DNA of 64,000 nucleotides, from the NCBI GenBank assembly GCA_946631895.1, contig CAMPAN010000001.1, forward strand, positions 50,436 to 114,435, in the 5' to 3' direction. Made by a program: the position numbers and the translations under genes. This DNA is from an uncultured Clostridia bacterium. Its GTDB lineage: Bacteria; Bacillota; Clostridia; Christensenellales; CAG-138. The notes under the pieces were generated by a model, which did no database searches, had not been told where the DNA came from, and worked only from the letters and a program-made list of their open reading frames with translations. Shown here piece after piece: positions 4,516-54,683 of the stretch. Numbering within the stretch: the stretch's first letter is position 1; each line of letters opens with the position of its first letter.

Positions 4516-6210
4516 TTATCCTTCGCCGCCGTCACCGGGATCGTCGGGCTTCGGCGTATCGGGTTTCGGTGTCGGATCCGGTTTCGGCGTATCGGGTTTC
4601 GGTGTCGGATCGTCGGGTTTCGGAGTCGGATCGTCGGGTTTCGGAGTCGGATCATCGGGCTTCGGCGTCGGATCATCCGGTTTCGGCGTTTTATCCGGCT
4701 TCGGCGTTGCATCCGGACCGACGATATAAACACCGGCAAAAGCTTTATAGGTTGACGTATCAAGCTTCTCGGTCTTTACAAGAACGCCGTTCAGATAATA
4801 CTCTTTTTTGCTTTCATAAACAGCACCGTTCCGGTTCTTGACTTCTTCTTTCTTGTATCCGGCTGGCTTTGTTTCATCAACAATATACTCAACCGCGCCG
4901 CTCGGCTTCAGCGTTTTGGTTTTTACCGGCTTCGGAATGCGGATCTCGTCGTATTCACCGTTGGAGTCTTCGATAATCGGGATACCCCAGATTTCCATGG
5001 TCAGTTCTTTTCCGTCGGCTCTGGCGATGATGATGATATCCGACTTGCTGCTGTTTTCAAACTTAAAGTCAATGATGTTACCGGTGGAGTTGATTGTGGC
5101 GTCAAGTCCTTTCGATACATAATCCACGTACATCGAATGATTTCTGCGTTCGACGATCTTCATGTCAGCCATGACCGCAGCGTTATAGAGCGTACTGGAA
5201 AGCTGGCATACGCCGCCGCCGTACTGCTTGACGTGTGCGCCCGCTTCATAGGCGGTAGCGACTTTCCAGCCGTTTGATTTATTTCGGACGCCGAGCGTTC
5301 CGTTAGCGGAGAAGACTTCGCCGGGATGCAGAACGGTTCCGCTGATCTTGCCGGCACCGTACTTGATGTTATACTTTCTGTTCTTGATGCTGCTGCCGTA
5401 TTTCGTGGTTTTGGTACCGCGAATAACATATTTGTCCTGAATATCCTCGAGTTTGATCTCTGCAGGGGTTTCTTCGGTCGGTGCAGCGATGGAATCGCCG
5501 GCTTTTGCAGTCAACAGGGAAGTGAGCAAGGACTCGCAGTCGATCGAACGTCCGGGAATATCCGGAATGAAATCGATCTTGTTTTCATCCTTATTGAAAG
5601 CTACGGTTGCGTTGACCGGATTTGTGCTGTTTGCTTCTGCAAACGCGTTGACGGCGTTACGAAGCGCTTCTTCTTCGAACGTCAGCAGCACGGGGAAATC
5701 CTGCCCCGAGGTTTTGATCCGTTCGACTTCTGCGGATACAGCTTCATAGCCGGTGTCTTCCCTTACAAGAGCAAATGCACCGTTCAGAGCTTCGTCGAGA
5801 TTGTCGACCGTTGCAATCGATTCTCCGGAAAATGTCTCACTGACGTCGCCGAAGCTGACCTGAATCTGCAGATCTTTCTTCGCCTGCTCGATCGATGGAA
5901 GAACGGCGGCTCTCGCCTCGTCCATGGTCATACCGCTGACAGAGACTCCGTTGATGGTAACGCCTTCCAGCATGGTCGTGCGTTTCAGAATTGCATTGAG
6001 TTCTTCGCGATACAGATCGGGTTCCGGCGTCACGATAGAGATCTCGTCCGAACCGCTGTGCGCGGTCTCGTTCGCAACAATCTGCTCGCCCGTACGTGGA
6101 TTATAGTCCACGTTTGTCTGGTTGTGTGATTCTCCGCAGGCAAGGCAGAAGACCAAAAGCAGAGCAACGAGGGGAAGCAGCCAAAGATAACGTTTCTTCA
6201 TTTGAATCAA
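4516..6210 (-). CDS. VanW family protein with G5-like domain and Pro-rich C-terminal repeat
   Basis: N-terminal TM/signal with Cys (LVFCLACG); VanW core (YGGGVCQLSSTLYNA...ERRNHS); a G5-like segment; C-terminal PKPDDPT repeats. Confidence 0.8.
   Translation of the reverse strand: MIQMKKRYLWLLPLVALLLVFCLACGESHNQTNVDYNPRTGEQIVANETAHSGSDEISIVTPEPDLYREELNAILKRTTMLEGVTINGVSVSGMTMDEARAAVLPSIEQAKKDLQIQVSFGDVSETFSGESIATVDNLDEALNGAFALVREDTGYEAVSAEVERIKTSGQDFPVLLTFEEEALRNAVNAFAEANSTNPVNATVAFNKDENKIDFIPDIPGRSIDCESLLTSLLTAKAGDSIAAPTEETPAEIKLEDIQDKYVIRGTKTTKYGSSIKNRKYNIKYGAGKISGTVLHPGEVFSANGTLGVRNKSNGWKVATAYEAGAHVKQYGGGVCQLSSTLYNAAVMADMKIVERRNHSMYVDYVSKGLDATINSTGNIIDFKFENSSKSDIIIIARADGKELTMEIWGIPIIEDSNGEYDEIRIPKPVKTKTLKPSGAVEYIVDETKPAGYKKEEVKNRNGAVYESKKEYYLNGVLVKTEKLDTSTYKAFAGVYIVGPDATPKPDKTPKPDDPTPKPDDPTPKPDDPTPKPDDPTPKPDTPKPDPTPKPDTPKPDDPGDGGEG
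4519..4719 (-). repeat. In-frame tandem 21-nt repeat encoding (T)PKPDDP units
   Basis: The DNA repeats GGATC(R)TCGGG(Y)TTCGG(N)GTC. The protein tail reads PKPDKTPKPDDPTPKPDDPTPKPDDPTPKPDDPTPKPDTPKPDPTPKPDTPKPDDP. Confidence 0.85.
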
Positions 6211-6956: not shown

Positions 6957-8386
6957 CGGCAGAGGAAGCAAAACAGAAGGATGCGCAGGCCATCGCCTCG
7001 GGGATATCCTCGCGTGCTTTGATGTACAAAGCGGCAGAGGGAATCGCGAAAGCGGTACGGGAAAGAAGCCGGACCGGAGAAATTGTCACGGCGATCTGCG
7101 GAATCGGCAATAACGGAGGAGACGGCGTCGCGGCGGCGCTGATCCTTCACAGAGCAGGTCTCCCGGCACGGATCGTTCTCTGCGGGAACGAAAAAGGATG
7201 TACGTCGGACACTTCGTTTTATCTTCGTACAGTGCGGGAAGAAGGCGTCCCGATCGACCGCCTCTGGGATCCGGCAGACCGCGAGATCCTGATCGACGCG
7301 CTGTTCGGCGTCGGATTGAATCGTCCGATCGAGGGAGACGCAAAAGCGTTGATTGAGCAGATCAACGCAAGCGGCAAGACGGTCGTTTCCGCCGATCTGC
7401 CGTCCGGTCTGCATGCAGACAGCGGCATGATCCTCGGAGAAGCGATCTCTGCAGATTGTACCGTCACAATGCAGGCGATCAAGGCGGGCATGCTCCTTGG
7501 ACAGGGACGCGCGCGGTGCGGCGAGGTGATCGTGAATCCGCTCTATAGCGACCCGTCGGACATACGAATGTTTTTGCAGGATGAGGAGGGGATTACAAAG
7601 CTTCTCCCCAAACGCGCGTTTGATTCTCATAAGGGAAAGAACGGTCATGCGCTTTTGTGTGTCGGATCAGAGACCTATCCCGGTGCGGCGCTGCTCTGCG
7701 CAAAAGCCGCTCTGCGCGGCGGCGCCGGACTTTTGACTGTCTGCACACCGGATCCGGTGCGCCCGTTCTTTGCGGCGCTGCCGGAAGCGATTACGGTTCC
7801 GACGGGAACCGCGGATTGGTGCGGAGACGCCGTTAAAGCCGTAAAGGATTCAATGGATCGAAAACAGGCGATCGGCATCGGCAGCGGTGCGGGGAAAGGC
7901 GATCTTGCGCCGGTTATCGAAACCGCGCTGCGATCCGGAACGAAACTTGTTCTGGACGCGGACGCGTTGAATCAGATGGCGGTTCATCGCGATCTTTTAT
8001 CCCTGCTGCACGACAATACGGTTCTTACGCCGCACGTCGGCGAAATGGCAAGACTGTTGGGAACGACGATCGAAGACGTCATCGCCGATCCGATCGCCGC
8101 CGTACGCTCGTTCCCGTGCACGACTTTGCTGAAAGGCGCAACAACGCTGATCCACAGCAAGGGAAGGATCGCATTTTCCGCGTTTGGCAATCCCGGACTT
8201 GCAAAGGGCGGCAGTGGGGATGTGCTGACCGGCTTGATTACGGCAATGCTCGCGCAGGGCATGGAACCGTTTGATGCGGCTCGCACCGGCGCATATCTGC
8301 TCGGCATTTCGGCAGATCGTGCGATGAAATTGCTCGGCGAACGCGCATTGCTTGCAAGCGATGTGATCGATATGATACAATACTGA
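6941..8386 (+). CDS. nnr: Bifunctional NAD(P)H-hydrate repair enzyme Nnr (epimerase plus ADP-dependent dehydratase)
   Basis: N-terminal YjeF_N (CGIGNNGGDG) and C-terminal carbohydrate-kinase-like domain (HKGKNGH..., GGSGDVLTG). Confidence 0.85.
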   Translation: MERILTAEEAKQKDAQAIASGISSRALMYKAAEGIAKAVRERSRTGEIVTAICGIGNNGGDGVAAALILHRAGLPARIVLCGNEKGCTSDTSFYLRTVREEGVPIDRLWDPADREILIDALFGVGLNRPIEGDAKALIEQINASGKTVVSADLPSGLHADSGMILGEAISADCTVTMQAIKAGMLLGQGRARCGEVIVNPLYSDPSDIRMFLQDEEGITKLLPKRAFDSHKGKNGHALLCVGSETYPGAALLCAKAALRGGAGLLTVCTPDPVRPFFAALPEAITVPTGTADWCGDAVKAVKDSMDRKQAIGIGSGAGKGDLAPVIETALRSGTKLVLDADALNQMAVHRDLLSLLHDNTVLTPHVGEMARLLGTTIEDVIADPIAAVRSFPCTTLLKGATTLIHSKGRIAFSAFGNPGLAKGGSGDVLTGLITAMLAQGMEPFDAARTGAYLLGISADRAMKLLGERALLASDVIDMIQY

Positions 8387-8388
8387 TT

Positions 8389-10176
8389 ATGGAAGAAAGA
8401 AAGATTCACGGTAATACCGCGGGAATCCGCGACGTCATACTGGACGAAATGCAGACGCTCTACGATGAAACGCAGCCGAGCGGCGTGTTTGCGTCATCCT
8501 CTCTTTTGGAGAAACTTGCCGATTATACCGGACGAATCGGTCGTGAGATATCTGTGTATCTGTCGCGCAGCGGCGCGGTTCGTGACGTTTCGGTCGGCGA
8601 TGCGACGACGGTATCCATGCCTGATATGCGACTTGTCCGCAATGCGGACCGCCTTGCGGGCGTCCGATGCATCCATACGCATCCGAACGGCAGCGGTTAT
8701 CTTTCCGATGTCGATCTCGGCACACTCAATTCCATGCGACTGGACGCAATGGCGGCGGTCGGCGTTCGGGACGGAAAACCGACTTCGGTATACGTGGCAT
8801 TTGTCGGCGAGATGGAAGGCGAGGAACGCAAACCGCTGATTTACGGTCCGATGCGTGCGGACCGCTTACCGCAGGATGCGCTTCTGGAAGCGCTGATCGA
8901 AGCGGACAACCGCTTGAAAGCACCGGCATATGCCGTAACGCAGGCAGAGCCGGAACGCGCGGTTCTCGTCGGGATCGACAATGACGACGGATACGACACG
9001 CTTGAAGAATTGCGTGCGCTTGCGGACACGGCAGGCGTCAATGTCGTGCATATCGAGCGGCAGCGCAAGCGCCCGGTCGATAACGGAACCTATGTCGGTT
9101 CCGGAAAAGCGGACGAGCTTCGACTGATTGGCAGTGCGACGGAAGCTGACGTGTTTATTTTCGACGACGAACTGACGGCGATTCAGATCCGGAATCTTGA
9201 AAGCATTCTGGGAACGCCGGTTATCGACCGGACCATGCTGATTCTCGATATCTTTGCAACCCGTGCCACCACGCGGGAGGGCAAATTGCAAGTTGAGCTG
9301 AGTCAGCTGAAATACCGCCTGCCGCGCCTTTTGGGCGTCGGCGTGGCAATGTCGCGGCAGGGCGCTTCCGGCGTCGGCATGCGCGGTCCCGGAGAGAAAA
9401 AACTTGAGATCGACCGTCGCCGCATCCGAAGAAGGATCTATGAACTGGAACAGGAACTGAAAGAAGTCGAAAAGCAGCGGGGGATCCGGCGTTCGGTACG
9501 AAAAAAGAGCGATACGCCGATCGTCGCGCTGGTCGGCTACACAAATGCGGGAAAAAGCACGCTCTTGAATGCGCTTTCCGACAGCAACGTTCTTGCGGAA
9601 GACAAGCTCTTTGCAACACTTGATCCTGTAGTACGCAGCATCACGCTTCCGAACGGAACGCCCTGTCTCCTGAGTGATACGGTCGGATTTATCAACAAAC
9701 TGCCGCACGACCTTGTACAGGCGTTCCGGTCCACACTGGAAGAGGTGCGCGATGCGGATCTGATCCTGCATGTCGTCGATGCAAACTGTCCGTATTACGA
9801 CGTACAGATGCGCGTCACGGAACAGGTTCTGGAGAATCTCGGAGCAGGGAATACGACCTGTATCGAAGTGTTCAACAAATGCGATCTTCCGGATGCGATC
9901 CCTGGGAAACGCGATTGCGCAGTCGCGATCAGCGCAAAGACCGGAATGGGGATCGACCGCCTTCTCGAACGAATCGAAGCCGAACTGAATCGCACGCAGC
10001 AGAAGGTCGAGCTTGTGATTCCGTACGATCGATACGAAGCCATCCGTGTGCTGCACGAGATCGGAACCGTATTGTCCGAATCGCATGAAGCGGACGGGAC
10101 ACATATATCGGCGATGCTGGAGGAGAGCAAGCTGTACCGCCTGAAAAACGCGCTTGACGGACGTTCCGATCGATAA
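8389..10176 (+). CDS. hflX: GTPase HflX with an N-terminal JAB/MPN-like extension
   Basis: HflX core with G1 GYTNAGKST, G3 DTVGF and G4 NKCD. An extra ~165 aa at the N-terminus contains E53...H96xH98x7S106xxD109. Confidence 0.85.
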   Translation: MEERKIHGNTAGIRDVILDEMQTLYDETQPSGVFASSSLLEKLADYTGRIGREISVYLSRSGAVRDVSVGDATTVSMPDMRLVRNADRLAGVRCIHTHPNGSGYLSDVDLGTLNSMRLDAMAAVGVRDGKPTSVYVAFVGEMEGEERKPLIYGPMRADRLPQDALLEALIEADNRLKAPAYAVTQAEPERAVLVGIDNDDGYDTLEELRALADTAGVNVVHIERQRKRPVDNGTYVGSGKADELRLIGSATEADVFIFDDELTAIQIRNLESILGTPVIDRTMLILDIFATRATTREGKLQVELSQLKYRLPRLLGVGVAMSRQGASGVGMRGPGEKKLEIDRRRIRRRIYELEQELKEVEKQRGIRRSVRKKSDTPIVALVGYTNAGKSTLLNALSDSNVLAEDKLFATLDPVVRSITLPNGTPCLLSDTVGFINKLPHDLVQAFRSTLEEVRDADLILHVVDANCPYYDVQMRVTEQVLENLGAGNTTCIEVFNKCDLPDAIPGKRDCAVAISAKTGMGIDRLLERIEAELNRTQQKVELVIPYDRYEAIRVLHEIGTVLSESHEADGTHISAMLEESKLYRLKNALDGRSDR

Positions 10177-10292: not shown

Positions 10293-12329
10293 ATGAAGCG
10301 ATTATTCACTGTGATACTCGCGGCAGCGCTGCTTTTGACGATGCTGCCGGCCGGCGCAGTTGCCGAAACAACATCATCACATATCATTGAGGCGGACCGC
10401 GTGCTCGTCTATAATCCCCTGCCGTACCGTGAAAAGGAGAATATGCTGTTTTCGGGAACGTTTCCGAAACCGGCGGAAGCCGAACCGACGGAAGGCACTC
10501 CTCTGTTCACCGCAGGTCTGCACAAAACCGGCAAGGACATGTCGATTTCGAAAAAGAATCCGAATACTTATGATTTCTGGGTCTGTACGGATCTTACTAC
10601 CTATCAGTATGATAAACGCACGTTCCGCCTTGCAAAGGAAGGGGAGCATTGCTGCATCTGGGTGCCGGAAAACGATACCGTTTCCTTCACAGATGATCAG
10701 ACGACGGAGATGCTCAACGAATTTGAGAATGTCATTTACCCGAGCAACACTGACCGTTTCGGCGGCTTCCGCGATCTGAATGGCGACGGCAAACTGCATA
10801 TTGTCACGTACGCAATGAACAGCCTGTCCGTCTGCGGGTTCTTTGACTCCTATGATCTGTATTCAAGAGAAGAAATTCAGGAGATCGACCCGGACGATTG
10901 CGAAAGCTATAACTGCCTTCCGATCATCAATGTGAACGCCCGCATGGCAGACCGGAATAAGATCGTATACGGGACGCTTGCGCACGAATTTCAGCATCTG
11001 ATTCTGCGCAGCGCCGTTCTGGCATCTCCTGCAAATGCCGGTCTTCTCGGCAAGGAAGATACGATCGGCGTCTGGCTGAATGAAGGCTTTTCCATGGCGG
11101 CGGAAGAATTTGCATATCCGGGTTCGGTGGCGGAACAAGGTTACCTGGATGCGTTTGAAAAGTCCGGCAAAGTCCGCATCGGAATGAGCTATCAGAACTT
11201 CGATGCGACTTCGAGCGACGTCGGCGCTTACGGGCAATCGTTCCTGTTTTCCGATTATCTGCGTACGCAGGGCGGGGAAGACGTATATAGCGGCGTCCTG
11301 GATTACTGGCGCAGTGCCGAAACGCTCTCGGCATTGACGGAGGGGAGCGCCATCCGTTCGCAACTGGATGCGGAAACGGTCGTAGCTTTACAGTCGATCT
11401 GCACATATTCCGATACGGTCAACGCGGCGCTCGGAACGGAAGACGAGATCCTTCTTTCTAAGATCGCGCTTGCGTTCCGACTCGCGATCCTTTTGAAGGA
11501 ACAAACCGGTGTTTATTCCATCCGTACGCCCGAAGCGTCGATACCGGAATATACAGGATCCGGCCGCAAGATCGAGGGCGGCGGCGCTCTGCTGCTTTCG
11601 TGCAGCGGATGCTTCGAGGTTCCGGCAGATGCGGACAGCGGACTTCTGTTTGTCGGAATCAAAGACGGATCGATCACGGAATTATATACGGTTCCGGAAC
11701 CGACAGAAGATTTTTACGTGATTGCCGCACAGTTTGAAGGCACGTGGTATGCGATCCCGGCAGAGGCGGCGTCCGACGGAACGCTGAAAGCGCGTACGTT
11801 TACACCGAATGCGGACGGGACGGTCGATTCCGAAAATGCAGCCGGATTGATCTATCGGGCAGAACAGACGGAAAACGGCTTCCGCTTTACCTGCGACGAC
11901 AGGGACGGATTCTATTCGCTGAACCGGTCCGGCACAAACAAACAGACCCTGAACGTATCTGCGGAACCGTGTACATTTACGTGGTTGCACTTTGCCGACG
12001 GAAGCGACAGGCTGCAGGCGGACGGCTATTACGGAAGAGCGATTCTGTACGGCAGCATCCAGGGCGGATTCGGATATTTCCCTTCCGGGTATTTTGAAAA
12101 CACGTCCTTTGCCAAACCGCAGCTGCTCCGCGTCAACATCAAAAAAGGCGATGCAAATCTGGACGGAGTACTGACGGCGGGTGATGCGGCGCTGGTACTG
12201 CGAACGGTTGTTGACTTGTCATACATGAATGCGCCGATGCGCTTTGCCGGCGATATCGACGGCGACGAAGAGATCGCAGCTGCGGATGCGGCGAAGATCC
12301 TGCGCCGTATCGTACAAACTGAGAACTGA
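10293..12329 (+). CDS. Secreted HExxH metalloprotease-like protein (M30/gluzincin-like) with C-terminal type-I dockerin
   Basis: Signal peptide (LLLTMLPAGAVA); TLAHEFQHL ... WLNEGFS zinc-protease motifs; C-terminal duplicated GDANLDGVLTAGDAALVLR / GDIDGDEEIAAADAAKILR dockerin repeats. Confidence 0.7.
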   Translation: MKRLFTVILAAALLLTMLPAGAVAETTSSHIIEADRVLVYNPLPYREKENMLFSGTFPKPAEAEPTEGTPLFTAGLHKTGKDMSISKKNPNTYDFWVCTDLTTYQYDKRTFRLAKEGEHCCIWVPENDTVSFTDDQTTEMLNEFENVIYPSNTDRFGGFRDLNGDGKLHIVTYAMNSLSVCGFFDSYDLYSREEIQEIDPDDCESYNCLPIINVNARMADRNKIVYGTLAHEFQHLILRSAVLASPANAGLLGKEDTIGVWLNEGFSMAAEEFAYPGSVAEQGYLDAFEKSGKVRIGMSYQNFDATSSDVGAYGQSFLFSDYLRTQGGEDVYSGVLDYWRSAETLSALTEGSAIRSQLDAETVVALQSICTYSDTVNAALGTEDEILLSKIALAFRLAILLKEQTGVYSIRTPEASIPEYTGSGRKIEGGGALLLSCSGCFEVPADADSGLLFVGIKDGSITELYTVPEPTEDFYVIAAQFEGTWYAIPAEAASDGTLKARTFTPNADGTVDSENAAGLIYRAEQTENGFRFTCDDRDGFYSLNRSGTNKQTLNVSAEPCTFTWLHFADGSDRLQADGYYGRAILYGSIQGGFGYFPSGYFENTSFAKPQLLRVNIKKGDANLDGVLTAGDAALVLRTVVDLSYMNAPMRFAGDIDGDEEIAAADAAKILRRIVQTEN

Positions 12330-12343
12330 TCGGAGGATCGGAT

Positions 12344-15300
12344 ATGAGATCTAAACTATGGAAAACCATACTGTCCTGCCTGCTTGCGGTCTGCACCGTT
12401 GCGTCGCTTGCTGCATGCGGGACGGCAGATCCCGAAAAATCAACAAAGGGAATCGTAATCAGCGAAGTCGTGTCCAGCAACAAACAGAGTTATCTGCACG
12501 ATGTTTACGGCTCGCCGGACTGGATCGAACTGCACAACGAATCGGATCGACCGATCAATCTGTTCGGCTGGGGCATCACCGATAACGTCAAAAATGCGGA
12601 AAAGGCATTGATGCTGCCGGAGATCACGCTTCCCGCGGACGGATATCTGCTGCTTCTTGCAACCAAAATGGAAAAGACCGATACGTTTACATGGGACGGC
12701 AAGAGCCCGATCTGTCTCGGCTTTTCGCTGAAATCGGCGGGAGAAGAACTCGTTCTGATCAATGCAAATCTGCAATCGGTCGATGAAGTTGCCGTTCCGC
12801 AGCTGAATCGGGATATTTCCTATGCAAGACGTTCAAACGGAACGTTCGGCTACTGCGAAGTGCCGACGCCCGGCAGCGCAAATTCGACGCCGATCATGGA
12901 TACGCAGCCTGCGGCAAAGGAACCGGAAGTTCCGCAACCGCTGACCGGAATCGAGATTTCCGAGGTTTCCTCCAGAAACACGATCCTGACCTGCGAAAGC
13001 TGCCTGAAATGCGATTGGGTTGAGCTGCACAACACAACATATTCCGACATCTCCCTGGACGGATGCACGCTCTGCGACGAACCGAGAGATTTTGACGATG
13101 CGAACCTTTCGGGCGTGCTGCCGGCAAACGGATATCTGGTTGTTTACTGCTGCGAAAAGGACTGCGCGTCCAGGGATCGGCATCTGTGTGTAAACCTCGG
13201 CGTCAGCCGTTACGGCGATACGCTGTATCTGTACGATGCAAACGGGTTTGAACTCGATCGCGTGGACGTCCCGGAAATTCCGTATAAGGATGTCACGTAT
13301 GCGCGCCGCTCCGACGGCCGTTTCGGCTATTGCGAGACGCCGACGCCCGGCGAAGCAAATACCGCGGAAATCACGAATGATCCGCCGTACCGTCCCGAAG
13401 AAAAAAACGAACCGGCGCAGAAAGACAATCAGCAGGACGACGAACCGGTTGATCCGACGCTTCATGCAAAACGACCGTCAGACGTACGCATCAGTGAAGC
13501 GCTCGCAAAGAACGCATACAGCATTGCGGACAGGGAAGGCGAACGCTGCGACTGGGTTGAGCTTGTAAACAAAACGGGAAGCGCAGTTTCGCTTTCCGGA
13601 TGGTATCTATCCGACAATCCGAAAAACTTAGTTAAATGGGCGCTGCCGGATTCTGCAAGAATCGAAGCGAACGGGTACCTTGTGATATTCCTTTCCGGAA
13701 AGACGAATATTACGGATGAACTGCATGCAGGTTTCTCAATCGGCACGGGCGAAACACTCTTCCTGTACAACCAGCAGACCGGAGAACTGGATTGGGTCAC
13801 GATCCCGGATCTTCCAGACAACGTTTCGGTCGGTCTGGACGAGAATAATGAACAGGTCTATTATCGCTATCCGACGCCGGGCAGCCCGAACGGTCACGCT
13901 GAAAAGAACGTGGAGGCAATCGGTTTTTTTCAACCTGACGGCGTATACATCTCCGAGGTATGCGCCATTCACGATCGGGGGAGCAAGGAAAAGGACTGGA
14001 TCGAACTGTACAACGGCGCAGATACCGAAACGAATCTTTCAGGCTGGTATCTGAGCGATTCGCTGAACGAACCGAAGAAATACCGGATCTCATCGTTATC
14101 GCTTGAAGCACACGGCTACGGCGTGATCGAAGCAACGAGCTCCGTCGCGAACCGCAAAGACGGGGACGCGCCGTTCGGAATCAGTCCGAGCGGTGAAATG
14201 CTGTATCTGTCCGATGCGAACGGAGTAATCCGCGATGCGTTTCAGACGGGCGTTCAGCGCAAAGGCATGTCCAGCGGACGCGTAGAGGGCGATAACCATA
14301 CCCGCCGCGTTTTCTTCACCAAAAAGACCAAGGGAGAGGCGAACAGCGAATCCCGCTATCGCGGATATGCGCTGCAGCCGTATTTCTCCGAAACGGCGTT
14401 GTACCCCGGCGGTGCGTTTTCGCTGACGCTGTCCTGTTCCGATCCGAGCGCCGTGATCCGCTATACAACGAACGGCAGCGAACCGACGGAAAAAAGCAAG
14501 CAATATACCGAGCCGATCAGAATCTCCGGCAATACGGTCATTCGAGCAGCGTCGTTCTCCGACGGATTGCTGAAGAGCGAAGTCGTGACGTACCATTATC
14601 TGTTCGATGAACCGCATCAGGTGCCGGTCGTCTGCATGGCGATTGCGCCGGATGATTTCAAGAAGGTTTATAATGTCAGCGTTCATAAGGACGTCGTCGG
14701 GACAGATCGCAAAGCGCAGTTCAATTATTACGAGAGCGACGGAAAAATCGGTGTGAGCTTTCCGGCGGACGTTCGCTGCAAGGGACAGGGAACCCTGAAA
14801 TACAAGCAAAAATCCTTTTCGCTGCATCTGCGCGGGCAGTACGGCATGAGCAAACTCAAATATCCGCTCTTTCCGGATTACCCGTACACGACGTTCGGCG
14901 CGCTTGTACTGCGCAACGGCGGTCAGGAAAACGACCGTGCGCGTCTCGTGGATTCCTTTGTATCGCGCATGAGCATCGGAATGAACGTTGAGGTGGCAAA
15001 CTCCCGCCCGACTGCACTGTACATCAACGGCGAGTATTACGGCCTGTATGAGCTCGGTGAAGATCTGAACGCAGACTTTCTGGAGACGCATTACGGTGCA
15101 GACCAGGACCTGGTCGATCTTGTTCGCTATAACGGCGATGTTGCGACGCAGGGATCGAGCAAGGATTGGGTGGCGCTTCGCGAATACGCAAAGAAAGCGA
15201 AGCTGTCCGATGATGCGGATTACCAATCCTATCTGGAGAAGATCGACGAAGCCTATTTCATCGATTACCTGATCGCAAGGACATACGTCTGCGACAGTGA

Positions 15301-15787
15301 TATGATCAATCAGAAATACTGGCGTGTTCGCGGATCGATCAAGTGGCGTCCGCTGCTGTTCGACCTCGACCTTGCGATGCGGAGCCCGAAACGAAACGAT
15401 GTGTTTGACAAATACTTCTCAAAGGATCCGGTCGTTTCTCCGCACGGATACAAGTCAGTGTTTTATGTGTTTGCCGTTCTGAAATCGAACAAGGGCTTCT
15501 GCGAGAAGTTTGTAGATCGTTATGTGCAGATCCTCTATACACAGTACGACACCGATCGCCTGCTGAATCTGCTGGATCAGATGATTGCCGAATACGAATC
15601 GGAAATGCCGCGTCAGATCAAACGATGGGGGAATCCGAAATCCATGTCGAAGTGGCGGGATCATCTAGACGATGTTCATACGTTTGTCAAAGGACGGCGC
15701 GAGATCATGATCGAAAAGCTCAAGAAATATTTCAAAATATCCGACAGCGATATGAACGCCCTGATTGCGAAGTACAGAAATCCGTGA
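12344..15787 (+). CDS. Lipoprotein with four lamin-tail (LTD) domains, a CHB_HEX_C-like domain and a C-terminal CotH kinase-like domain
   Basis: Lipobox LAACG. Four repeats of the pattern ISEV...DWIELxN....L.GW.LSD. VIRYTTNGSEPT segment. C-terminal CotH-like region (ALYINGEYYGLYEL...). Confidence 0.75.
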   Translation: MRSKLWKTILSCLLAVCTVASLAACGTADPEKSTKGIVISEVVSSNKQSYLHDVYGSPDWIELHNESDRPINLFGWGITDNVKNAEKALMLPEITLPADGYLLLLATKMEKTDTFTWDGKSPICLGFSLKSAGEELVLINANLQSVDEVAVPQLNRDISYARRSNGTFGYCEVPTPGSANSTPIMDTQPAAKEPEVPQPLTGIEISEVSSRNTILTCESCLKCDWVELHNTTYSDISLDGCTLCDEPRDFDDANLSGVLPANGYLVVYCCEKDCASRDRHLCVNLGVSRYGDTLYLYDANGFELDRVDVPEIPYKDVTYARRSDGRFGYCETPTPGEANTAEITNDPPYRPEEKNEPAQKDNQQDDEPVDPTLHAKRPSDVRISEALAKNAYSIADREGERCDWVELVNKTGSAVSLSGWYLSDNPKNLVKWALPDSARIEANGYLVIFLSGKTNITDELHAGFSIGTGETLFLYNQQTGELDWVTIPDLPDNVSVGLDENNEQVYYRYPTPGSPNGHAEKNVEAIGFFQPDGVYISEVCAIHDRGSKEKDWIELYNGADTETNLSGWYLSDSLNEPKKYRISSLSLEAHGYGVIEATSSVANRKDGDAPFGISPSGEMLYLSDANGVIRDAFQTGVQRKGMSSGRVEGDNHTRRVFFTKKTKGEANSESRYRGYALQPYFSETALYPGGAFSLTLSCSDPSAVIRYTTNGSEPTEKSKQYTEPIRISGNTVIRAASFSDGLLKSEVVTYHYLFDEPHQVPVVCMAIAPDDFKKVYNVSVHKDVVGTDRKAQFNYYESDGKIGVSFPADVRCKGQGTLKYKQKSFSLHLRGQYGMSKLKYPLFPDYPYTTFGALVLRNGGQENDRARLVDSFVSRMSIGMNVEVANSRPTALYINGEYYGLYELGEDLNADFLETHYGADQDLVDLVRYNGDVATQGSSKDWVALREYAKKAKLSDDADYQSYLEKIDEAYFIDYLIARTYVCDSDMINQKYWRVRGSIKWRPLLFDLDLAMRSPKRNDVFDKYFSKDPVVSPHGYKSVFYVFAVLKSNKGFCEKFVDRYVQILYTQYDTDRLLNLLDQMIAEYESEMPRQIKRWGNPKSMSKWRDHLDDVHTFVKGRREIMIEKLKKYFKISDSDMNALIAKYRNP

Positions 15788-19992: not shown

Positions 19993-20086
19993 TGGCGGAG
20001 ACGGTGGGATTCGAACCCACGGACCGGCTCATCACCAGTCAAACGATTTCGAGTCGTTCTCGTTATGACCACTTCGATACGTCTCC
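19993..20086 (-). tRNA. tRNA-Ser (anticodon CGA), CCA encoded
   Basis: Minus strand reads GGAGACG...AACGA-CUCGAAA-UCGUU...long variable arm...GUGGGUUCGAAUCCCAC-CGUCUCC-G-CCA. Acceptor, anticodon and T arms fold by hand. Confidence 0.9.
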
Positions 20087-46027: not shown

Positions 46028-46364
46028 GTGAGTAAGTCAGACGATCGCGGCTCTTTATGAGGTGAGGAAAGTCCGAGCACCGCAGGGCAGAGTGCCGGGT
46101 AACACCCGGTGAAGGCGACTTCAAGGAAAGTGCAACAGAGAGATACCGCCCGGTTTTCCGGGTAAGGATGGAAAGGCGAGGTAAGAGCTCACCAACGGCA
46201 TGGCGACTTGTCCGTTCTGTAAACCCCACTCGGTGCAAGATTGGAATGAGAGCATTCAATAGCGGCCCGCTACGCTCTTGATAATCGCTTGAACGGCCCG
46301 GCAACGGGTCGTCTAGATAGATGATCGTCCTTAGACAGAACTCGGCTTACGGCTTGCTCACCGT
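46028..46364 (+). ncRNA. rnpB: RNase P RNA (bacterial)
   Basis: GAGGAAAGTCCGAGCAC (P4 5' strand) and ACAGAACTCGGCTTAC (P4 3' strand). P1 is formed by GTGAGTAAGTC (5') and GGCTTGCTCAC (3'). Length about 337 nt. Confidence 0.85.
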
Positions 46365-54328: not shown

Positions 54329-54683
54329 TGGTGGAGGCGGGGGGAGTCGAACCCCCGTCCGAAAACCCGTTGGCAGGATTTTCTCCGAGCGCAGTCGGTG
54401 TTTTAGGATTCCCCTCGCGCGGCGCCCTCCGACAGGCTCCGCGTTACGGTAGCTTCATAAAGTCCGGCCTGCGGCAAAGCTTACGCAGGTTCGTTCCCTA
54501 CCCTAATGACGCCCGGTTCCGAAGCGGTAAGTTTCCTCGGGCGGACGCGTAGCTGCTTTATGCAGCTGCGAGCTGAGTGTGATTGTTGTCAGTTATTTTA
54601 GACAGTTCCCGTTTTTAACGAAGCACGGGGCTTCGGCTCGCTTATCCCGCTTCCGCGATCCCCGTCGAAACCATTTCGCCCCC
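54329..54683 (-). ncRNA. ssrA: tmRNA (SsrA)
   Basis: 5' end GGGGGCGAAAUGGUUUCGACGGGGAU; 3' end GGGGGUUCGACUCCCCCCGCCUCCACCA (tRNA-like T arm, acceptor and CCA). Tag ORF ends ...DNNHTQLAAA-TAA (about 54558-54600). Lies immediately downstream of smpB. Confidence 0.9.

Follow-up and report, generated by a model that had tools for sequence, protein, structure and literature searches.

The ribosome-splitting GTPase HflX of an uncultured rumen Clostridia bacterium (Christensenellales) very probably carries an N-terminal JAB domain with a complete JAMM metalloprotease site. The gene lies in a 64,000-nucleotide stretch of contig CAMPAN010000001.1 (positions 50,436 to 114,435 of the forward strand; hereafter the window, in which all coordinates are given), where it occupies 8389–10176 on the plus strand and encodes 595 amino acids plus the stop. 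We assign the extension to JAB because motif, fold, and conservation agree; it is a divergent JAB subfamily that is overlooked by the present Pfam and NCBIfam models. Judging by its sequence, the domain is most likely an active JAMM hydrolase, with a peptidase as the likeliest kind, while the C-terminal ~400 residues are a bona fide HflX. An earlier note, made from the sequence alone, had described an open reading frame (ORF) of 595 residues with a JAMM motif, a candidate catalytic glutamate, and the G1, G3, and G4 motifs of a GTPase, and regular-expression searches of the translation agree with it at each of these positions.

The JAMM motif, E-x(n)-H-[ST]-H-x7-S-x2-D, is complete in the extension. 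The predicted general base is E53 (codon 8545–8547, plus strand), which sits in the context RIGREISVY just after the near-invariant R52. The predicted zinc ligands (H96, H98, and D109) and the predicted oxyanion serine (S106) lie in H96-T97-H98-PNGSGYL-S106-DV-D109 (8674–8715, plus strand). Residues 96–109 read HTHPNGSGYLSDVD and align in register with the motif of the deubiquitinase AMSH-LP, IHTHPTQTAFLSSVD. The bare pattern H.H.{7}S..D has just two occurrences in the six-frame translation of the window, one of which is the JAMM site. We consider this count alone to be weak evidence and conservation to be the stronger argument against chance. We compared three sets of homologues: 52 close to medium homologues, down to 38% identity (A1); a second set of 30 sequences (A2); and 44 representatives of 50%-identity clusters, which are 31–50% identical to the window protein (A3). 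E53, H96, T97, H98, S106, and D109 are invariant in all three sets, and the motif was found in 80 of the 80 genome loci that we retrieved. The five motif residues that had been noticed in one protein are indeed conserved among the orthologues that carry the extension (invariant in 52 and in 44 sequences). Other invariant or near-invariant positions are G8, N9, G12, R14, R52, R60, G62, G70, R84, L89, R93, L113, and D119.

Comparisons of the domain (residues 1–178; 8389–8922, plus strand, as delimited with an AlphaFold2 model and Foldseek) lead to JAMM enzymes. A phmmer search with the single sequence against the PDB returned mostly JAMM enzymes (AMSH, AMSH-LP, RPN11, and Sst2), at a marginal E of about 0.3. 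Profiles against PDB sequences reached AMSH-LP at E = 8e-4 (A1) and E = 2e-3 (A3), and in both alignments IHTHP...LS.VD falls in register with the catalytic motif of AMSH-LP. When the members of each set were scanned singly against Pfam, the commonest family was Prok-JAB (PF14464), with matches in 21 of the 52 members of A1 and 32 of the 44 members of A3 (best E = 2.6e-4, all below the Pfam gathering score). RadC (PF04002) was the next commonest JAB family, with weak matches in 5 of 52 and 12 of 44 members. A scan of the extension against PHROGs gave weak matches to tail-protein and unknown families only. To build an independent JAB profile, we also searched the window and the 80 loci for genes of RadC or of other JAB proteins, and found none.

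The predicted structure points the same way. AlphaFold2 modelled residues 1–185 with a mean predicted local distance difference test (pLDDT) of 87.1 and a predicted template-modelling score of 0.85, and the trimmed core (residues 30–160) with a pLDDT of 86.4. The model has helices at 15–26 and 37–50, a hairpin at 54–59/63–69, a strand at 92–98 that ends in the HxH motif, a helix at 107–116 that opens at S106/D109, strands at 120–127, 130–138, and 150–155, and a C-terminal helix at 162–176. This order (helix, hairpin, HxH strand, S..D helix, and the hairpin of strands 4 and 5) is that of the MPN/deaminase-like fold, as set out in the passages of PMC3239186 that describe it. At the Ins-1/helix-2 position, strands 2 and 3 are linked by a loop (residues 70–91; 8596–8661, plus strand; pLDDT below 50 for 72–84) with conserved R81, R84, R88, and L89 (in A3, R84 is conserved in 91% and L89 in 100%). 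In Foldseek searches of the PDB, the top matches for the full domain include CSN5 (E = 1.2e-3), SRU_2040 (2kcq), RadC (2qlc), Rpn11, and Cap3. For the trimmed core, the top 10 are all JAB/MPN proteins (2kcq with probability 0.97, RadC with 0.96, CSN5 with 0.92, and Mov34), and other deaminase-fold proteins come after them. In the viral database BFVD, the best E was 5.6e-5 and the named matches are MPN, RadC, proteasome-lid, and deubiquitinase proteins. Thus, both profile and structure searches return an MPN/JAB fold (AMSH-LP at 8e-4, Prok-JAB in 32 of 44, and JAB/MPN proteins at the top of Foldseek). The earlier note had seen a RadC-like context for the motif. The JAB domain stands, but it is nearer to Prok-JAB and SRU_2040 than to RadC specifically.

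One other match deserves mention. The A3 profile also matches spinach chloroplast uS19 (residues 5–48) at E = 0.005, over profile positions 27–70 (window 8467–8598). We set mimicry of uS19 aside, since none of the many further uS19 entries in the PDB is matched and the likeness, of a helix and a hairpin, is probably due to chance. On the ribosome, uS19 is near the A-site region, where the JAB domain is predicted to sit.

The remainder of the protein has the complete architecture of HflX. TIGR03156, the equivalog model, matches residues 190–532 (E = 3.7e-132; 440.5 bits vs. a cutoff of 216.75), as expected from the earlier description of residues ~190–595 as a normal HflX. NF008280, an E. coli-type HflX model, matches residues 189–571, onto model positions 9–399 of 426. 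The Pfam models GTP-bdg_N, GTP-bdg_M, MMR_HSR1, and HflX_C all score above their cutoffs and together span residues 204–573. As the HflX models cover only residues ~189–573, about 185 N-terminal residues are extra. The extension that had been noticed is thus present, with ~178 of these residues in the domain. All on the plus strand, the parts are the N-terminal subdomain ND1 (residues 190–290; 8956–9258; PF13167 GTP-bdg_N at 204–290, E = 5.5e-29, with TIGR03156 starting at 190), the helical domain, also called NTD2 (292–371; 9262–9501; PF16360 GTP-bdg_M, E = 9.9e-28), the G domain (379–497; 9523–9879; PF01926 MMR_HSR1, E = 3.2e-21), and the C-terminal domain (507–573; 9907–10107; PF19275 HflX_C, E = 1.7e-6, 28.4 bits vs. 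a cutoff of 26.4). The motifs of the G domain are intact (G1 GYTNAGKST at 383, G3 DTVGF at 430, and G4 NKCD at 496). Across 49 distant orthologues, identity to the window protein is 62% for the JAB domain, 72–74% for ND1/helical domain and for the G domain, and 44% for the C-terminal domain. Thus, purifying selection on the JAB domain is comparable to that on the rest of the protein.

Could the extension be an artefact, with the motif there by chance in a wrongly annotated 5' extension, or with the gene itself chimeric or misassembled? The start is the ATG at 8389, two nucleotides downstream of the stop of nnr (TGA, 8384–8386), and inspection of the upstream sequence revealed no obvious Shine-Dalgarno sequence, which could be taken as a sign of a wrong start. 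Also, some NCBI gene calls for orthologues start 21–24 codons later (571–574 amino acids). However, these shorter calls would drop the conserved G8, N9, G12, and R14, which lie upstream of the late starts and are conserved in distant homologues, and would still keep the whole JAMM site. Furthermore, hundreds of independent assemblies, closed chromosomes among them, show the same architecture. The conservation of the motif and this recurrence effectively refute an artefact. The two-nucleotide gap, together with the lack of an obvious Shine-Dalgarno sequence, instead suggests that translation of hflX may be coupled to that of nnr.

The fusion is widespread. An identical protein is already public, where it belongs to a 90% cluster of 142 members under the name 'GTP-binding protein HflX', and a search with the full-length protein returned close relatives only, at 71% identity or more. 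Over the JAB domain, the window protein has 95% identity to a rumen 'Clostridiales' metagenome-assembled genome (MAG), RUG13494. We scanned GTDB, with one genome per species, for the strict peptide pattern [GC]VRC[ILV]HTHP, and 587 species match. All 80 of the loci that we fetched are fusions, with the JAB motif followed by the P-loop of HflX ~287 residues later unless the end of a contig intervenes. An exhaustive hidden Markov model (HMM) search of 1.84 billion representative sequences found 1105 clusters (50% identity) at E ≤ 1e-3, of which 656 were at E ≤ 1e-10; full-length matches have 578–650 amino acids with the domain at residues 1–175. Two of three cluster look-ups yielded few organism names. 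Among the named carriers are Christensenellales and Oscillospiraceae MAGs from the rumen and gut, Heliophilum fasciatum, Desulfitobacterium hafniense, and a MAG labelled Fusobacterium sp., whose protein (MDO4589547.1) belongs to a 599-residue JAB-HflX cluster (P0230). The fusion may therefore be present in, or have been transferred to, the Fusobacteriota, beyond Bacillota/Clostridia.

Among these matches there was no genuine standalone JAB gene, as the two apparent splits both look like artefacts when checked. In the first (L085 5001–6783, P0054; Christensenellales MAG JBAMQL010000007.1), a 188-residue JAB ORF and a 444-residue HflX ORF overlap by 119 nucleotides in another frame. We rejected a two-gene form here; the arrangement suggests a frameshift in a fusion gene, by sequencing error or in a pseudogene. 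We also rejected the second split of JAB from HflX (P0093), which lies on a contig with 0.59x coverage and many broken genes. A different arrangement was seen in three longer proteins: P0109 (1090 residues, from an ENA metagenome) and P0152 and P0279 (869 and 895 residues, from a Nitrospinota MAG and annotated as 'LPS assembly lipoprotein LptE') have an LptE-like lipoprotein segment followed by 4–5 tandem copies of the domain. The Nitrospinota-type copies score 44–70 bits each, and their HxH...S..D motif is degenerate (for example, 'FIRTGFDGKG' and 'FIHTQFGKGG'). These tandem copies are inactive, presumably periplasmic versions of a domain that is otherwise seen only on HflX.

Where the domain would sit on the ribosome can be estimated from solved complexes. 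In complexes of HflX with the 50S subunit, ND1 lies on H69–H71, the loop of the helical domain is in the peptidyl transferase centre, and the C-terminal domain is at uL11 (PMC9638945). HflX from Mycobacterium smegmatis has a 39-residue N-terminal extension that joins ND1 at the point where Y41 and Q43 contact uL16 and the A-site finger (H38), and the tip of this extension reaches the H68–H71 junction and promotes disordering of the rRNA (PMC11831132, PMC12493154). Our A1 profile aligns residues ~173–243 of the window protein with residues 32–106 of M. smegmatis HflX. Therefore, the end of the C-terminal helix of the JAB domain and the short linker that follows it, which is of roughly constant length in the family (residues 179–189; 8923–8955, plus strand; pLDDT below 50 at 179–185, with the HflX models starting at 189–190) should be the anchoring point. 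The spacing from the JAMM histidine to G1 is 275–311 residues across representatives, which suggests a defined geometry and not a floppy tether.

We propose that, as in the solved complexes, HflX-GTP would bind 50S subunits and 70S ribosomes that are stalled or vacant, and that the JAB domain would then lie on the intersubunit face of the 50S subunit, near uL16 and the A-site finger and either within or alongside the corridor of the A-site and P-site tRNAs. An extended substrate would be hydrolysed there with zinc bound by H96, H98, and D109, with S106, and with a water that E53 activates; the splitting of the subunits would either expose this substrate or bring it within reach of the JAB domain. 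The likeliest substrate would be a peptide or isopeptide bond in the tail of a ribosomal protein or in a ribosome-bound factor. According to the passages of PMC3239186 on the enzymes of this family, all of the JAMM enzymes that have been characterised biochemically are peptidases or isopeptidases. We favour such a bond because of this precedent and because the domain is acidic (median pI of 5.3 and net charge of −5.5), unlike a general RNA binder. For a ribosome-directed hydrolase mechanism as a whole, we think that the chances are about even. A bolder reading, to which we give a probability of roughly 0.35, is more specific: JAB-HflX may be a ribosome-targeted JAMM (iso)peptidase that, in the course of GTP-dependent splitting, acts on the 50S intersubunit face close to uL16 and the A-site finger to cleave a specific ribosomal protein tail, a bound factor (one for hibernation or stress, for example), or a modification that is covalently attached to a protein. 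To our knowledge, it would be the first ribosome-targeted JAMM (iso)peptidase to be described in bacteria. Hydrolysis of the ester of peptidyl-tRNA or of a nascent chain in the tunnel was judged unlikely, as in the solved complexes it is the loop of the helical domain and not the N-terminus that reaches the peptidyl transferase centre. The earlier note had listed nascent chains among the conceivable substrates; given the position of the N-terminus of HflX on the 50S subunit, they look sterically unlikely (PMC11831132).

A second possibility is that the domain is an RNA-directed hydrolase (a nuclease or similar) and that HflX positions it for cutting or trimming tRNA, mRNA, or elements of 23S rRNA (H38, H69–H71) on stalled ribosomes. 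Iyer et al. (2011) inferred, in the passages of PMC3239186 on RadC, a nucleic-acid function for the RadC-type JABs. One of the best structural matches to our domain is RadC (2qlc), and 12 of the 44 members of A3 have weak matches to the RadC family. Also, the neighbours that we would expect on the 50S subunit are largely RNA, and the conserved basic residues R14, R52, R60, R84, and R93 cluster round the motif. However, the acidity noted above applies to the domain overall, Prok-JAB matches exceed RadC matches (32 vs. 12 in A3), and Pfam finds neither the helix-hairpin-helix (HhH) nor any other of the nucleic-acid-binding modules with which RadC occurs. We know of no JAB protein with a biochemically demonstrated nuclease activity. 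On balance, RNA cleavage seems unlikely.

Third, the domain could be mainly structural: a wedge or anti-association module at the H68–H71 bridges, with the metal site serving for stability of the fold or for zinc or redox sensing. The mycobacterial extension, which has the same attachment point, promotes splitting via the disordering of H68–H71 (PMC11831132, PMC12493154), and re-association would be blocked sterically by a domain of 20 kDa on the intersubunit face. The metal-free repeats in the Nitrospinota lipoproteins likewise illustrate non-catalytic use of the scaffold. What makes us doubt this explanation is that E53 and S106, which are not ligands in JAMM enzymes, are invariant along with the two histidines and the aspartate at 31–50% identity. 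Such invariance is typical of catalysis and not of a structural zinc site.

Finally, the domain could act away from the ribosome, where its target might be, for instance, a ubiquitin-like sulfur carrier or another tagged protein, with HflX as a regulatory partner that couples this activity to GTP or to the state of the ribosome. Characterised Prok-JAB-type proteins process ubiquitin-like (Ubl) proteins at their C-termini (Mec+/CysO, QbsD, and Cap3 in the cyclic-oligonucleotide-based antiphage signalling system, CBASS), and Prok-JAB is the best Pfam match to our domain. However, the fusion partner is always HflX, at a near-constant spacing, and the matches include no genuinely separate JAB gene. 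Neither the window nor three distant loci showed Ubl, E1, or CD-NTase genes close to the fusion gene. We consider action off the ribosome to be improbable, and more so than either RNA cleavage or a wedge.

Several points weigh against our proposal as a whole. First, Pfam and NCBIfam models searched with residues 1–180 or 1–185 gave no JAB family even at E ≤ 10. We attribute this to the coverage of the models and do not count it as a biological feature that defines the family. Second, the fold matches are moderate, with no PDB match at E ≤ 1e-3 and template-modelling (TM) scores of about 0.3–0.45, and the position of the canonical JAB helix 2 is taken by the low-confidence loop of residues 70–91 in the model. 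Third, the placement of the JAB domain on the ribosome is extrapolated from a 39-residue unstructured extension of a distant HflX, and there, by the A-site finger and uL16, a globular domain might run into tRNAs or the 30S subunit. Fourth, genes for ubiquitin-like, E1/E2-like, or CD-NTase proteins were absent within ~8 kb at three distant loci and among the five neighbouring ORFs of the window that we scanned, so the context gives no clue to the substrate. Also, the tandem copies of the domain that have lost the metal ligands indicate that this scaffold can serve non-catalytic roles. Catalysis, zinc binding, and ribosome binding by JAB-HflX are themselves predictions.

It is useful to compare JAB-HflX with the systems that it resembles. 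Like the HflX proteins of E. coli, Listeria monocytogenes (HflX and HflXr), and M. smegmatis, it has a complete ND1, helical domain, G domain, and C-terminal domain, and, as in mycobacterial HflX, additional sequence precedes ND1. However, the extension in the window is a folded, enzyme-like unit of ~178 residues, in contrast to the unstructured peptide of 39–58 residues in mycobacteria (PMC12493154). The alignment to HflX chains in the PDB starts only at residue ~173 of the window protein. No solved or characterised HflX that we know of carries such a domain.

With the Prok-JAB proteins (PF14464; SRU_2040/2kcq, the Mec+/QbsD type, and Cap3 of CBASS), the domain shares the E...HxHx7SxxD site and a minimal MPN fold, and this is the group with both the best structural match (2kcq, probability 0.97) and the commonest Pfam match. 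In contrast to these proteins, it has a pair of extra helices at the N-terminus that bear a conserved GN..G motif, as well as the long conserved loop at 70–91, and it is fused to a ribosomal GTPase instead of standing alone, with no Ubl, E1, or CD-NTase neighbours. With the RadC-like JABs (PF04002, 2qlc), it shares a compact fold (Foldseek probability 0.96, TM ~0.41) and a similar HxHP..(x)..S..D core. However, its motif is H-T-H-P-x-G...L-S-x-V-D where RadC has HNHPSG..PS..D, the window protein has no PF04002 match and no HhH module, and its context is the ribosome and not DNA. AMSH and AMSH-LP, Rpn11, and CSN5 give the best sequence-profile matches in the PDB, with the motif in register, and CSN5 and Rpn11 are among the fold matches; yet our domain lacks Ins-2 and a partner MPN- subunit, and the identity is ~15%. 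We know of no ubiquitin system in the bacteria that carry the fusion. As for the Ubl-coupled JAB systems (ThiS/MoaD-E1-JAB operons, Cap2/Cap3 of CBASS, and Bil), the neighbourhood that defines them is absent from the loci scanned.

In Desulfitobacterium, the order of genes around the fusion is mutL-miaA-hfq-AAA ATPase-JAB-hflX-Met_gamma_lyase, and in Heliophilum it is AAA ATPase-JAB-hflX-Met_gamma_lyase. The order in Bacillus subtilis is spoVK-ynbA(hflX)-ynbB, which the arrangement in Desulfitobacterium and Heliophilum appears to match if their AAA ATPase is taken as SpoVK-like and their Met_gamma_lyase protein as YnbB-like. On this basis, JAB-hflX may be the housekeeping HflX and not an accessory paralogue. 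The neighbours in the window are others: upstream of hflX is nnr (YjeF_N plus Carb_kinase), which is preceded by recX, and downstream is a dockerin protein. This last gene (10293–12329, plus strand), directly downstream of hflX, encodes a large secreted protein of 678 residues with a C-terminal dockerin-like match (21.8 bits vs. a cutoff of 22.9) and an HExxH-like 'HEFQH'. The next gene (12344–15787, plus strand) encodes a large secreted protein of 1147 residues with four lamin-tail domains (LTD) and a CotH kinase-like domain. Farther upstream, at 4516–6210 on the minus strand, is the gene of another large secreted protein, which combines VanW and PG_binding_4 domains with a low-complexity C-terminal tail of 'PTPKPDD/PKPD' repeats. 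The window also includes a tmRNA (54329–54683, minus strand; tag peptide DNNHTQLAAA), and therefore the genome also has the trans-translation rescue pathway. The other RNA genes that we noted are a class A RNase P RNA (46029–46364, plus strand) and a tRNA-Ser(CGA) (19993–20086, minus strand).

We found no description of a fusion of HflX with JAB, JAMM, MPN, or RadC, or of JAB together with a GTPase and the ribosome, in the full texts that can be searched (subscription-only literature was outside the scope). The passages of two JAB surveys (PMC1779556, PMC3239186) on GTPases, the ribosome, RadC, and Clostridia include no such fusion; the name HflX itself was not searched for in them, and neither survey came up in the search for HflX together with JAB. 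One review mentions N-terminal extensions of HflX in Clostridium and says nothing more about them. The JAB matches of this subfamily fall below the thresholds of Pfam and NCBIfam, and so more than 1000 protein clusters bear no annotation other than 'GTPase HflX'.

HflX is a conserved factor for ribosome splitting, stress, and antibiotic resistance that is being studied by cryo-electron microscopy. In present models it is a purely mechanical GTPase, while here it is joined to what appears to be a catalytically competent hydrolase domain. At the level of sequence and fold this finding is solid, and it is a surprising one for the field of ribosome rescue. The carriers are a large group of Clostridia from the gut, the rumen, and the environment, together with one Fusobacterium or more, and these bacteria probably bring an uncharacterised predicted hydrolase to the ribosome. 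If the domain is active, then ribosome rescue or recycling would gain a chemical step (proteolysis or RNA cleavage) that has no counterpart in the model organisms. If it is an (iso)peptidase, as we tentatively propose, then rescue in many Clostridia and some Fusobacteria would include a form of proteolytic editing that is absent from what is known of E. coli, Bacillus, and mycobacteria.

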